Assembly: GCA_019058365.1 (NCBI GenBank)
Contig: JAHPZE010000001.1
Location: 128,001-192,000, forward strand
DNA: 64,000 bases
Source: Promethearchaeota archaeon
Lineage (GTDB): Archaea; Asgardarchaeota; Lokiarchaeia; Sigyniarchaeales; SOKP01
Reading direction: 5' to 3'
Shown here: positions 4,589-21,041 of the stretch, one piece after another
Numbering within the stretch: position 1 is the stretch's first letter
Layout: each line of letters starts with the position of its first letter
The notes under the pieces: model-generated
The model's database searches: none
What the model was told of the DNA's origin: nothing
What the model saw: the letters and a program-made list of their open reading frames with translations, nothing else
Program-made: the position numbers and the translations under genes

Positions 4589-5569
4589 TTACCTATATAA
4601 TATTTCTTTAAGTAAATTTGCGAAAGACTCGAGATCTTCTTTATGGAAAACCGGATCTTCTTTTAGGAGTATTAAATAGTATGGATCTGAATCTTTCTTT
4701 AGTGTGATTTGCTTAAATATAAAATTTTTACCAAATCTTTGAACTATCATTCTACTTTCATATCTATCTTCTGCTACACCAGTATACTGGAAGCTATCAT
4801 TGAGTGTGAGAAAATATGGCGTTGAGGCGGTGAGTAGATGCTTGGTTTCATCATCTTTATAATATGATCCGATTATAAGAGAGTTATCATCAATTATCAC
4901 AACTCCTTCTGAGTCAACTTTTTTAGCAAATTCTAAAATAGTTTTTTCGATTAATTCTGATTTTGGATATAAGCTTAAAAGGATTTCAGACATAGCAGTA
5001 ATAATAGAGCCAAAATCATAAATAGAAGTTTCATAATAATATAATTCCTTATATTCAGTGGCTCTTAATTTATCTTTTAAATCAATTATTAAAGATTCCA
5101 TTTCATTTTGTGCACTTCTTCGTAATGCGGGATCATATTTATGAAGAAACACATATATTGGGGGTTTAATTTCTAATTTTTTAAACTGCTCTAATACATC
5201 TTTAAAATAACTTATAGCTTCAGGTATTCGAGGTTTATTTTGGATGTCAATTACATAAATAGCAATTTCAGTTCCTTCGAAATATTTACCAGGATTCTTC
5301 AAATAGGCAATTCTATAACTCAATTGGCCCCCTAGGTCCCATTCTGATATTTCTTTACCAAGAAAATCAAAAATTCTTTTCTGAGCACCTCGAGTTGGAG
5401 AAAGGATTGCAATTTTTGAAAATTCTCTTTGAAGGGCAAGAATTATTGAAGTTTTACCTGCCTCGTCTAATCCTGTAAATAATATCTTAGAAATTTCAGG
5501 TTTGGGGGGTTCTTCCTTTTTTAAGTATAAAATTGATTGTTTAAGATTCTTTTCCAAAGTGTATTTCAC
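4589..5569 (-). CDS. Rag/Arf-like small GTPase with C-terminal roadblock-like domain
   Basis: G1 GLDEAGKTS, switch I PTRG, G3 WDLGGQ, G4 HKYD, G5 ETSIYD; C-terminal GVVIIDDNSLIIGSY beta-hairpin domain. Confidence 0.85.
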   Translation of the reverse strand: MKYTLEKNLKQSILYLKKEEPPKPEISKILFTGLDEAGKTSIILALQREFSKIAILSPTRGAQKRIFDFLGKEISEWDLGGQLSYRIAYLKNPGKYFEGTEIAIYVIDIQNKPRIPEAISYFKDVLEQFKKLEIKPPIYVFLHKYDPALRRSAQNEMESLIIDLKDKLRATEYKELYYYETSIYDFGSIITAMSEILLSLYPKSELIEKTILEFAKKVDSEGVVIIDDNSLIIGSYYKDDETKHLLTASTPYFLTLNDSFQYTGVAEDRYESRMIVQRFGKNFIFKQITLKKDSDPYYLILLKEDPVFHKEDLESFANLLKEILYR

Positions 5570-8196: not shown

Positions 8197-9699
8197 ATGG
8201 AAGAATTACTTAAATCTTCAATTATAAAGGGATTTGTTCTAAGTGTCTTTGGAGAACTTGGTCCAACTCCAATTTATTGCTTCCCTAATTATGTTACTGA
8301 AAAGGAGTTCAAGGAACTTTCCAAAGAATCAAAAGATCAAGGCCATCTTATTTTAACATATCGTGATATTACTCAAATTTCCATAAAAAATTTAAGCCTT
8401 TTTATTAGTGATAAGATTGTTATGGAAGAGAAGGATCTCACAAAAATTCAATATTTTGCTATTTTACCATATCCTGATTTTAACACAACTTCTCTTACCT
8501 ATTTTCATTTTATTAGGAGAGATTCTGAAGATCATTCAATCCCAACCGCATTTTCGATACTAGCAGAAGAAAAAAGCCGAAGCTTTTTATATAATAATAT
8601 AAATCGAATTAAACCAGTAGTTACTGAATTTTTCAAAATTTTTGATAAAAAGATGCTTGATTCTTACCCTCCACGTGAAAATGTTGAAAAATTTTTCCAA
8701 GATCTTTTGACAGAATTAATAGAAATTGTGAAAAACCCTTCAACTCCAATTACTACTCATAGGAAGATGAAGATTTTATTTGCAGGTTTGGATAATTCAG
8801 GCAAAACTAGTTTTTTACTTTCTGTAGATCGTAAATATAGTAAACTAATCGGTCTTAAACCCACAGCAGGAGCGAGTATAAAATCTATTGAAGCATTAGG
8901 GGCTACAATTTTTCTTTGGGATTTAGGAGGACAGAGAAAATTCCGAGAAAAATATATTAATAAAGCTGAAATCTATCTATATGAGGCTGATCTTTTATTT
9001 TACTTTATTGATATTAAAGATAGAGCTAGATTTGATGAAAGTATTGAATATCTTCAAAATCTTAAGAGTGTGATTGAAGAATTCAATCAAAATACACCAA
9101 TAGTATACATATTATCAAAAGGAGATGCTGATATCTTAAATACAGGAGAAATTAAAGAAAATATCGAATTTATAAAAACAAAGTTAAGAGAAAATGATCA
9201 AGATGACTCACTAGAAACATATACTACAAGTATCTTCCAAATCTTTACAATTCTACGAGCCTTTTCTTCAGGTATCTCAAAATTAAGTCCAAATAGAGAT
9301 CTGATTAATCATAATCTTAAAAAATTCTCTTTAATGACAGAATCATATTTAACGCTACTTTTAAGTGTTGACGGTTTAGTCCTTGCCAATTTCTATGATA
9401 AACAAACTATGGGTTTAACGAAAATTCCTAAATCAGAAGTAATGAATGTATTTGAAATCTCTGCACCTCAATTTACGGTTTTATTTAAAATATTTTCAAA
9501 ATTTAAAGCATTACAACAAAATGAAGCTTTATTTAGAGTTTCAAATACAGTAATTTTTATTAAAAGAATCCAAATTGAAGAAAACGATATGTTTCTCTTA
9601 TTTTTAGTAGATAATGAAAATAAAAAAGATAAAATTGATGAAGAATTGCCAGGATTCTTAAAATACACCCAAGATTTACTTTTACGATATATTGCTTAA
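8197..9699 (+). CDS. Three-domain protein: uDENN/longin-like + Rag/Arf-like GTPase + roadblock-like
   Basis: N-terminal VLSVFGELGPTP...YFAILPYP; G1 GLDNSGKTS, G3 WDLGGQ, G4 SKGD, G5 TTSIF; C-terminal LLLSVDGLVLANFY. Confidence 0.8.
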   Translation: MEELLKSSIIKGFVLSVFGELGPTPIYCFPNYVTEKEFKELSKESKDQGHLILTYRDITQISIKNLSLFISDKIVMEEKDLTKIQYFAILPYPDFNTTSLTYFHFIRRDSEDHSIPTAFSILAEEKSRSFLYNNINRIKPVVTEFFKIFDKKMLDSYPPRENVEKFFQDLLTELIEIVKNPSTPITTHRKMKILFAGLDNSGKTSFLLSVDRKYSKLIGLKPTAGASIKSIEALGATIFLWDLGGQRKFREKYINKAEIYLYEADLLFYFIDIKDRARFDESIEYLQNLKSVIEEFNQNTPIVYILSKGDADILNTGEIKENIEFIKTKLRENDQDDSLETYTTSIFQIFTILRAFSSGISKLSPNRDLINHNLKKFSLMTESYLTLLLSVDGLVLANFYDKQTMGLTKIPKSEVMNVFEISAPQFTVLFKIFSKFKALQQNEALFRVSNTVIFIKRIQIEENDMFLLFLVDNENKKDKIDEELPGFLKYTQDLLLRYIA

Positions 9700-18442: not shown

Positions 18443-19486
18443 ATGAAACGTCAAATAATTCAAGGAATAGTATACATAGAAATGAATGATGAATTGGGAC
18501 CTAATCCTGTCGCATGGCTTCCTAATACATTCACACAAATGGATTTAATTAATATAAGCATTAAAGTATTAACAATCCTATCGGGTGAAGACGGTCTTAT
18601 ACCTGAATCTTTAGTAATCCTCCCCTTTCCTTCAAGGAATTTAAAGGGAATTGTTAAATACATTAAATGGGCTGATTCATTAAGACGAGGAGGTATTGGT
18701 CAATCGGCTCTTGTATTGTTGTTTAAAGAAATAGATGATGTAATTTTTTATAAATATATTAATGATCTATCAATTCCTTTTAATAACCTCACACCAGAAA
18801 TAATAAATTTAGAAAATTCAAAAGCATCTAGAGAAGATTTCATAAGATTACTTGAACACCTTGAATTTAATATATCCGCTCTTTTAGAAGAATTAAAAAT
18901 TCAAGAAATGGCTCAACAAGAGAGTAAAGCATTCCCTGATCAACAACTTAAAGACCGAAATTTAATAGATTATCAATTTAAAATTATAATTTGTGGAGAT
19001 CCGCACGTTGGTAAAACTTCATTGATATTGAGATATACCAATGATGCATTTAGAAGAAATTACGTACCAACTTTAGGTGTTATGGTTTCAGATAAGATCT
19101 TTAAGATTGATGATTTTATCATCCAATTAACGTTATGGGACATCGGAGGTCAGCAAAAATTTCAAACAATGAGAAGACAATTTTATCGAGGTTCTGACGC
19201 TGTATTCTTGGTTTTTGATTTAACAAGAATTGACTCCTATAATAATATTCCTAAATGGTTTTCAGACGTAGCTGAACAGCTTAAAAATCGTTCTGAAGAA
19301 TTAATGGGATTTATTATTGGAAATAAAAAAGATTTAACTAACCAAATACAGGTAACTTCTGAAATGGCAAATCAAATTGCAGATCAATTAGGAATAGGAT
19401 TCATAGAAACATCAGCACTACAAGGAGAAAATGTAGATTATGCTTTCTCTACAATCGCTAACTTATTACTTAAATCCCGTTTATAA
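18443..19486 (+). CDS. uDENN/longin-like domain fused to Rab-like small GTPase
   Basis: N-terminal MNDELGPNP...VILPFP...DSLRRGG; C-terminal GDPHVGKTS, PTLG, WDIGGQ, FYRGSD, GNKKD, ETSAL. Confidence 0.88.
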   Translation: MKRQIIQGIVYIEMNDELGPNPVAWLPNTFTQMDLINISIKVLTILSGEDGLIPESLVILPFPSRNLKGIVKYIKWADSLRRGGIGQSALVLLFKEIDDVIFYKYINDLSIPFNNLTPEIINLENSKASREDFIRLLEHLEFNISALLEELKIQEMAQQESKAFPDQQLKDRNLIDYQFKIIICGDPHVGKTSLILRYTNDAFRRNYVPTLGVMVSDKIFKIDDFIIQLTLWDIGGQQKFQTMRRQFYRGSDAVFLVFDLTRIDSYNNIPKWFSDVAEQLKNRSEELMGFIIGNKKDLTNQIQVTSEMANQIADQLGIGFIETSALQGENVDYAFSTIANLLLKSRL

Positions 19487-19514
19487 TGGTATTCAATGAA
19501 ATAAATCGTTCATA

Positions 19515-19559
19515 GCTTTTTCTACAATTGCTATATTATTGTATAAATTGTGTTTATAA
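19515..19559 (+). repeat. Degenerate direct copy of the last 45 nt of the upstream Rab-fusion gene
   Basis: 35/45 nt identical to 19442-19486 by my count; reads AFSTIAILLYKLCL* versus AFSTIANLLLKSRL*. Confidence 0.75.
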
Positions 19560-19574
19560 TTATCTATAGGTATC

Positions 19575-19598
19575 TTCGTGAAAGAGGTGTTTCACGAA
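19575..19598. other. Perfect 9-bp inverted repeat (possible terminator, binding site or scar)
   Basis: TTCGTGAAA-gaggtg-TTTCACGAA. Confidence 0.5.
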
Positions 19599-19646
19599 CT
19601 TCGATACATTAAACTGTAAACCATTCAAATTCACAAATTTTTATAA

Positions 19647-19832
19647 AATCCTATTTTTATTTTAGGAAATAAGGAAGATTTAATTTCTGAAAGATATCTA
19701 GTATCTGAAGAAGCATTAAAAATTGTAAATGAACTTACCTTAGAGTATATCGAGACTTCTGCGTTAATTGAAAAAAACATAGAAGAAAGCTTTTGCAAAA
19801 TGGCGGAAAGTTTAATTAAATCCCATCAATAA
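19647..19832 (+). pseudogene. 3' remnant of a Rab-like GTPase gene
   Basis: Translates to NPIFILGNKEDL...LEYIETSALIEKNIEESFCKMAESLIKSHQ*. It has G4 and G5 only and is preceded by an in-frame TAA. Confidence 0.85.
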
Positions 19833-19843
19833 TCAATAATGAA

Positions 19844-20495: not shown

Positions 20496-21041
20496 CTATG
20501 ATACAGATATTTCCTTGTATTTAGAATACAATTTTTGAATAATTGCTTGAAATGCTTCGTATACTCCTTGTCCTGTTTTTGCTGAAGTCTTATAATACCC
20601 GAAAAAGTCTTTTTTATTAACAAATTTTAGGATTTTCTCCTCATTGAAGGTTTTTTCATCTATTAAATCGACTTTATTTCCAAATAGTAAAATAGGGATA
20701 TCTCCACAGAATTTTTTTATTTCATTTTGCCAATTTGGAACATGTTTAAAACTTTCTCTACCAAAATCATTTTCTTCAAGAGAAAATACTATAATAGCAG
20801 CCAAGCTGGATTTATAAAAAGCAGGACGTAAGAAATGGAAAGTATCTTGACCTGCAATATCCCAGAAGAATAACTTACAGTTATCACCTTCAATCTCTTC
20901 AGTATATTTGGAAAATTGTGCTCCAATTGTTTGAATGTATTCGTCTTGAAAACCTCCTTGTGTAAATTTTCTAATTAGTGAGGTTTTACCTACCGCTCCA
21001 TCTCCAATAATAGTAATTTTGAACGTGAATTTTTCATTCAT
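20496..21041 (-). CDS. Rab-like small GTPase
   Basis: GDGAVGKTS, QTIG, WDIAGQ, GNKVD, KTSAK; no C-terminal prenylation Cys. Confidence 0.92.
   Translation of the reverse strand: MNEKFTFKITIIGDGAVGKTSLIRKFTQGGFQDEYIQTIGAQFSKYTEEIEGDNCKLFFWDIAGQDTFHFLRPAFYKSSLAAIIVFSLEENDFGRESFKHVPNWQNEIKKFCGDIPILLFGNKVDLIDEKTFNEEKILKFVNKKDFFGYYKTSAKTGQGVYEAFQAIIQKLYSKYKEISVS

Follow-up and report, generated by a model that had tools for sequence, protein, structure and literature searches.

Can a small GTPase of an archaeon carry its own GAP in the same polypeptide? The question is raised by the gene for P0001, which lies in the 64,000-nucleotide stretch of DNA analysed here (the window; G+C content 29%). Its product is a switch protein found in Loki-type Asgard archaea and made of two domains, a longin domain and a complete Rab-like G domain, which are joined by a tether of ~12–17 residues plus the long α3 helix of the longin (Table 1). 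A preliminary description, made from the sequence alone, had read an arginine in a longin loop, R82, as a catalytic finger of the folliculin (FLCN)/SMCR8 type and had proposed that this GAP mechanism existed before eukaryotes. The longin-Rab fusion is a candidate 'self-timing' switch for which GAP function is plausible.

Table 1. Features of the P0001 locus and of related longin genes in the same genome; positions are those of the window unless another contig is named.
Feature	Position	Strand	Basis or remark
Longin-Rab-like fusion gene (P0001)	18443..19486	+	Uninterrupted ORF, 347 aa, stop codon included
Longin domain, residues 1-162	18443..18928	+	AlphaFold2 model
G19-P20 turn at start of β2 ('GP motif' of GAP-type longins)	18497..18502	+	Sequence, AF2 model; conserved 59/73
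β4-β5 loop D78-S-L-R-R82-G-G	18674..18694	+	Contains the candidate arginine finger, R82 (nt 18686-18688)
Linker, residues 160-176	18920..18970	+	Residues 160-171 pLDDT <50 in full-length AF2 model
Rab-like G domain, residues 177-347	18971..19483	+	Pfam Ras and G motifs
Multi-pass membrane protein, 236 aa	17609..18319	+	Directly upstream, co-oriented; no Pfam family
Diverged 11-residue copy of the gene's own C-terminus	19515-19547		Within interval 19487-19843 before nitroreductase gene
Remnant of tandem longin-Rab paralogue (copy B), 58 codons	19656..19829	+	G4-G5 and C-terminus; tblastn E 4e-23, 50-67% identity to same-genus copy B
Stand-alone Rab/Ras-like GTPase, 181 aa	20496..21041	-	Ras E 4.6e-42
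Longin-Rag-like paralogue, 500 aa	8197-9699	+	GP turn GELGPTP kept; β4-β5 loop FIRRDSEDHS without R-G
Longin-Rag-like paralogue, 490 aa	1-201, continues left (L002:529-2001)	-	GP motif; loop P-D-A-K-A-R-G
Large protein L003, open frame 1142 aa	contig C20:14976-18335		Arf-like GTPase (E 5e-34), longin, PAS domains, GAF domain

Homologues of P0001 number 240 in 90%-identity clusters. They are mostly ~347 aa long, are annotated as Rab family GTPases and come from Promethearchaeota/Lokiarchaeia; one of them (P0072, LCGC14_0709660) is a protein from the original Lokiarchaeum metagenome. An exhaustive N-domain search yielded 131 representatives (clusters at 50% identity), mostly fused proteins of ~345 aa. 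Moreover, of 201 genomes sampled from the phylum, 71 contain a match to the longin profile, as do 40/40 of the window's own family; a genome with matches usually has 2–5 of them.

The C-terminal half of P0001 is a complete Rab-like G domain that retains the G3 glutamine, as the preliminary description had it. Residues 180–342 match Pfam Ras (PF00071) with an E value of 1.6e-45, and the closest solved relatives are Rab1B, Rab1A, Rab8A and Ypt1 (E 1e-36 to 1e-32). The motifs G1 (185–192, GDPHVGKT), G3 (233–237, DIGGQ237), G4 (294–297, NKKD) and G5 (322–326, ETSAL) are intact, as is the switch-I threonine T210, and across the family K180, G185, G190, K191, D233, G236, D259 and D297 are invariant. 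In the linker F164-P165 is conserved, with F164 present in 53/73 representatives. Asgard Rab-like proteins usually lack the C-terminal prenylation Cys; such a motif is likewise absent from P0001, which ends in LLLKSRL. An intrinsic switch-I arginine of the MglA or Gα type is also absent: the sequence reads Y207-V-P209-T210, with R204 and R205 5–6 residues upstream. Since Pro209 precedes Thr210, the G domain has no MglA-type built-in arginine. P0001 nevertheless resembles MglA/MglB and Gα in concept: the GTPase would bring its own catalytic arginine or recruit one, and the regulator is of the roadblock/longin type. However, the arginine of MglA and Gα sits in switch I of the G domain, whereas the candidate finger of P0001 is found in a separate, fused domain.

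Two further features of the G domain may be recorded here. Residues 203–205 of switch I (19049–19054) are a conserved F-R-R (consensus AFRRxYxPT), as against Y-T-E in Rab1; this is not the position of the intrinsic arginine in MglA or Gα. In the P-loop (18995–19018, residues 185–192), G-D-P187-H-V-G-K-T, a proline occupies the Ras Gly12 position, and proline is the majority state of the family (consensus GDPxVGKT). An association of P187 with the longin R-G, the strongest among the G-domain columns (Fisher p 0.0034), was rejected, as it fails correction for multiple tests and is not upheld in phylogeny-controlled pairs either (0.9 same way, 0.3 opposite).

The N-terminal half adopts a longin fold in the AlphaFold2 model of residues 1–172, which was built on a 101-sequence alignment and has a mean pLDDT of 88.7 and a pTM of 0.83. 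The modelled elements (β1 6–15, β2 19–26, α1 32–47, β3 58–62, β4 67–77, β5 85–95, α2 96–125 and α3 130–162) follow the longin topology β1-β2-α1-β3-β4-β5-α2-α3. The top Foldseek match in the PDB is the Lokiarchaeota longin dimer 8yqg (E 5e-7), followed by GATOR1 NPRL2 chains (~1e-4). VIA re-alignment gave 13.4 for Lst4, 12.6 for NPRL2, 12.5 for FLCN and 11.6–11.7 for C9orf72/SMCR8, and 9.5 or less for VAMP7, Mon1-Ccz1, TRAPP, adaptor σ and roadblock folds. Thus, the longins of GAP complexes lead the ranking and the N-domain of P0001 groups with them, by a margin of ~2–3 Z units; its best eukaryotic structural matches are NPRL2, FLCN and SMCR8. The P0001 longin itself matches no Pfam or NCBIfam family, either within the full protein or as the N-domain alone. 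Two homologues, P0152 (27.1 bits) and P0189 (24.5 bits), exceed the gathering score of 23.3 bits of Pfam Folliculin (PF11704) with a match that covers the β4-loop-β5-α2 region; P0236, P0176, P0243 and the L002 paralogue score under this cut-off. In one related Atlas cluster, NPR2 is annotated on 19% of members. Taken together, these data support the assignment of the N-domain to the FLCN/NPRL2/SMCR8 class of longins, the catalytic core in the longin GAP complexes of eukaryotes. Unlike those proteins, P0001 puts a candidate GAP and a candidate substrate into one polypeptide, and it has neither a C-terminal DENN domain nor the NPRL2-specific C-domain, residues 177–347 being the G domain.

We note that several crystal structures of longin, roadblock and Rag-like proteins from Lokiarchaeota, all of recent release, are in the fold-search list (8yqg, 8yl2, 8zla, 9m28 and 9jue). 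Our literature search found no paper describing them; judging by these releases, experimental study of the Lokiarchaeota longin/roadblock/Rag system seems to be ongoing already.

Both sequence markers of GAP-type longins are found in P0001. The NDELGP pointed out in the preliminary description reads N15-D-E-L-G19-P20, and the DSLRRGG that it placed between two β strands lies at exactly the nucleotide positions given there, in the modelled β4-β5 loop, where D78 to G84 have pLDDT >90. Conservation was counted in 73 diverged full-length representatives of 50%-identity clusters. P27 is kept in 67 of these, R82 in 61, G83 in 60, G19 and P20 in 59 each and D78 in 53, so that the conservation of DxxxRG among Asgard homologues, named earlier as a check, is borne out. 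By comparison R81 occurs in 19/73, and S79 and L80 are variable. Conservation of R82, G83, D78 and G19-P20 is far above chance and persists in homologues down to ~25% identity. As R82, G83 and D78 are kept and S79, L80 and R81 are not, the conserved core is D-x-x-x-R-G and R82 is the candidate finger.

The R-G is not universal. About 1/6 of the homologues have lost it and still possess an intact G domain with the catalytic Gln, which argues that the finger is dispensable for some members. Of 66 fused sequences, both R-G and G-P are present in 48 and both are absent from 11, while 7 have one of the two (Fisher p 3.7e-7). On the tree there are at least 8 changes of R-G, and at least 5 branches show joint loss of the two motifs. 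A phylogeny-controlled test of this co-loss yielded only 4 supported pairs (sign-test p 0.5), too few for significance. In these sequences, then, the GP and R-G motifs tend to be kept or lost together.

How closely does the loop correspond to the fingers of eukaryotic GAPs? According to a 2026 preprint, DENN/longin GAPs have their catalytic arginine in the longin subdomain, between β4 and β5. Like P0001, NPRL2, FLCN and SMCR8 have the longin fold, a GP turn where β1 meets β2, and an Arg that is conserved in the loop from β4 to β5. The sequences of NPRL2 and folliculin were fetched via short fragment queries, both fragments matching at 100% identity, and the NPRL2 and FLCN side of the alignments consists of vertebrate sequences only. 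The finger R78 of NPRL2 could be seen in the fetched sequence, together with G20-P21; the finger of FLCN is R164, and that of SMCR8, R147, is backed by papers. In a profile alignment by hhalign (E 0.0015, residues 4–125), NPRL2 R78-N79 falls onto R81-R82 in the same hairpin loop, such that R78 itself aligns on R81, one residue off R82. Moreover, G20-P21-x6-P28 of NPRL2 and G19-P20-x6-P27 of P0001 have equal spacing. The hhalign alignment to folliculin residues 100–260, which is not significant (E 0.15), sets D78, R82 and G83 onto the D, R and G of KDSLARGF, the D-x-x-x-R-G being common to both proteins. The preliminary description had called the D-S-L-x-R-G match to folliculin exact. The identity does hold against the fetched KDSLARGF; however, S79 and L80 are unconserved and the S-L is coincidental. 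With the whole folliculin N-terminus, hhalign aligned only an irrelevant helix (E 0.076), and a global alignment was likewise unsuccessful. Overall, the evidence supports placing R82 in the β4-β5 loop, the site of the finger in GAP-type longins. The Lokiarchaeota Roadblock-Longin protein 8yqg keeps the GP motif, but there KEPEK replaces the R-R-G-G of P0001 and thus no finger arginine is present. The longin of 8yqg is joined to a roadblock domain, whereas that of P0001 is joined to a GTPase.

The longin profile was also searched against the window's own genome (4.74 Mb, 54 contigs) and matched four places. One of them (L004) was set aside as a chance match; by eye it is a chelatase/vWA-like protein. 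All three real matches carry both the loop arginine and an attached G domain, which is Rab-like, Rag-like or Arf-like. The paralogue at the left edge of the window combines a GTPase of Rag/Arf-like type (Gtr1_RagA E 4e-25) with a possibly roadblock-like C-terminal part, and its longin gives a sub-threshold Pfam Folliculin match of 18.5 bits over the finger loop. The loop of the L003 longin reads N-E-S-I-R-G-G. Because the G domain differs in family from one arginine-bearing longin to the next, the set argues, indirectly, for coupling of the longin to the attached domain.

Two side observations concern these relatives. In L003 a finger-bearing longin is built into a prokaryote-style sensor protein, comparable to the NPRL2-like longins of Liu et al. 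The finger-less longin-Rag-like relative in the window lies ~9 kb from finger-bearing genes.

The gene order in the same genus is membrane protein, copy A, copy B and nitroreductase, copies A and B being tandem longin-Rab paralogues. Copy B is intact in same-genus genomes; here it has lost the longin domain and the larger part of the G domain. The relative G177 likewise shows no intact copy B in the interval from copy A to the nitroreductase gene. The idea that copy B is a systematically arginine-less partner, in the manner of FNIP, NPRL3 or C9orf72, was discarded, since, with the loops read by eye, 13/15 B copies keep R-G and 2 have K-G; in copy A, R-G is kept in 13/13. A homologue of the upstream membrane protein also precedes copy A in L005, L006, L008, L011 and L017, and this protein could be a putative anchor or sensor for a GTPase that lacks prenylation. 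GTPases like the stand-alone Rab/Ras-like protein of the window neighbour the gene in L016, L017 and L020, and its product is a possible candidate substrate in trans.

We propose, with a probability of about 0.5, that P0001 is a self-switch in which R82 as finger and Gln237 act on a dimeric longin platform. The proposal builds on what is directly observed: fold, class, motif positions, motif conservation and intact G motifs. Longin domains would pair into a dimeric platform, as in the Lokiarchaeota longin dimer, FLCN-FNIP, NPRL2-NPRL3 and SMCR8-C9orf72. The tethered G domain, either its own or that of a partner, would dock on this platform, and R82 would reach the γ-phosphate and complete the active site with Gln237. 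Unless the finger were held away, the GTP-bound state of P0001 would in this way be cut short by the protein itself. Dimerisation, docking, catalysis and the choice of cis or trans are the inferred parts of the proposal. The FLCN/SMCR8/NPRL2 class works as a dimer of two longins, whereas the tandem paralogue of P0001 has been lost in this genome. The full-length AF2 model (pTM 0.62) has a disordered linker and no confident interdomain contact, and therefore offers no computational evidence that the G domain docks on the longin. It also counts against a self-switch that a permanently fused GAP and substrate would need a regulatory step. Further points against it are the missing Pfam and NCBIfam match of the P0001 longin, the non-significant folliculin alignment, the arginine-free loop of 8yqg, the homologues that have lost R-G and the low power of the controlled co-loss test. 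We hold more tentatively, as a possibility, that P0001 is a self-contained GTPase timer, its GAP-type longin giving the finger to the G domain of the same chain or across a homodimer, and that this would be the ancestral fused state, later split into FLCN-FNIP, GATOR1 and C9orf72-SMCR8 and their substrates.

Other explanations must be weighed against this. The longin might serve as a platform for dimerisation or as a scaffold, or present a GEF-like or effector-binding surface, with D-x-x-x-R-G having a structural or ligand-binding, non-catalytic role; D78 and R82 could make a loop-stabilising pair. There are precedents in the C-terminal roadblock domains of Rag GTPases and in the TRAPP, Mon1-Ccz1 and DENN GEFs, and longin/roadblock platforms are mostly GEFs or scaffolds (PMC10933270, PMC13408092). 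Moreover, 8yqg, the nearest solved relative, forms a dimer but does not have the arginine, and ~14/66 fused homologues lack R-G yet have an intact G domain. On the other hand, both GAP-class markers, GP and the β4-β5 arginine, are present, highly conserved and inclined to joint loss, the structural ranking puts GAP-class longins above GEF-class and SNARE longins, and homologues pass the Pfam Folliculin threshold. We consider this explanation rather unlikely. It is more doubtful still that the longin is a GAP-type module acting in trans on other GTPases, with its own G domain serving localisation or regulation. The suggested substrates are the Rab-like protein encoded at 20496–21041 and the Rag-like proteins at 4589–5569, 8197–9699 and the window's left edge. 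Such action would agree with the eukaryotic longin GAPs, which always work on separate polypeptides, with the recurrence of a stand-alone Rab-like GTPase as neighbour and the presence of several GTPases within 20 kb, and with the lack of cis docking in the full-length model. Against it, every arginine-bearing longin detected in this genome is fused to a G domain, each of a different family, which argues for coupling, and the GTPase genes of MK-D1 are not generally in operons with regulators (Tran et al., PMC10933270).

Mere coincidence of motifs, with an N-domain unrelated to GTPase regulation, is highly improbable and already disfavoured. It is true that part of the folliculin match is due to chance, as S79 and L80 are unconserved, and that there is no direct Pfam match of the P0001 longin. 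However, R82, G83, D78 and GP are conserved to ~25% identity, and the evidence of fold and family and the obligate fusion to G domains all speak against coincidence.

Both halves of the favoured self-switch idea have already been published, namely finger-bearing Asgard longins and longin-GTPase fusions. Asgard longins of the Folliculin/SMCR8 type, with an arginine finger and a GP motif that by definition sits at the start of β2 or in the turn preceding it, have been put forward as an ancestral GAP (Traffic 2025, PMC12290439), and NPRL2-like and FLCN-like Asgard longins have been described in fusion with signalling domains (Liu et al., bioRxiv 10.1101/2020.10.19.343400). These longins have the phylum, the fold class, the two motifs and the ancestral-GAP idea in common with P0001. 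Longin-GTPase fusions were reported in Lokiarchaeum (Klinger et al. 2016, as cited in PMC4917890) and longin/roadblock-GTPase fusions in MK-D1 (Tran et al. 2024, PMC10933270); like P0001, they combine a longin and a small GTPase in one Lokiarchaeia ORF. These descriptions, that of Klinger et al. as relayed in the citing paper, stress Arf/Rag-like G domains and make no mention of a catalytic arginine, whereas the G domain of P0001 is Rab-like and its longin has GAP-class motifs. The preliminary description had thus overstated the novelty of a pre-eukaryotic GAP. In the literature compared, we did not find Rab-fused longins assigned to this finger-bearing class, or the joint keeping or loss of finger and GP motif.

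What is added here is a fused form that is conserved, abundant and directly assayable, together with a finger and GP motif that tend to be kept or lost together. If R82 works as a finger, P0001 would be the simplest system in which to prove by experiment that FLCN, GATOR1 and C9orf72-SMCR8 use a longin-GAP mechanism older than eukaryotes. Moreover, if true, this would explain how GTPases are switched off in Asgard archaea, where small GTPases are many and recognisable GAPs few.
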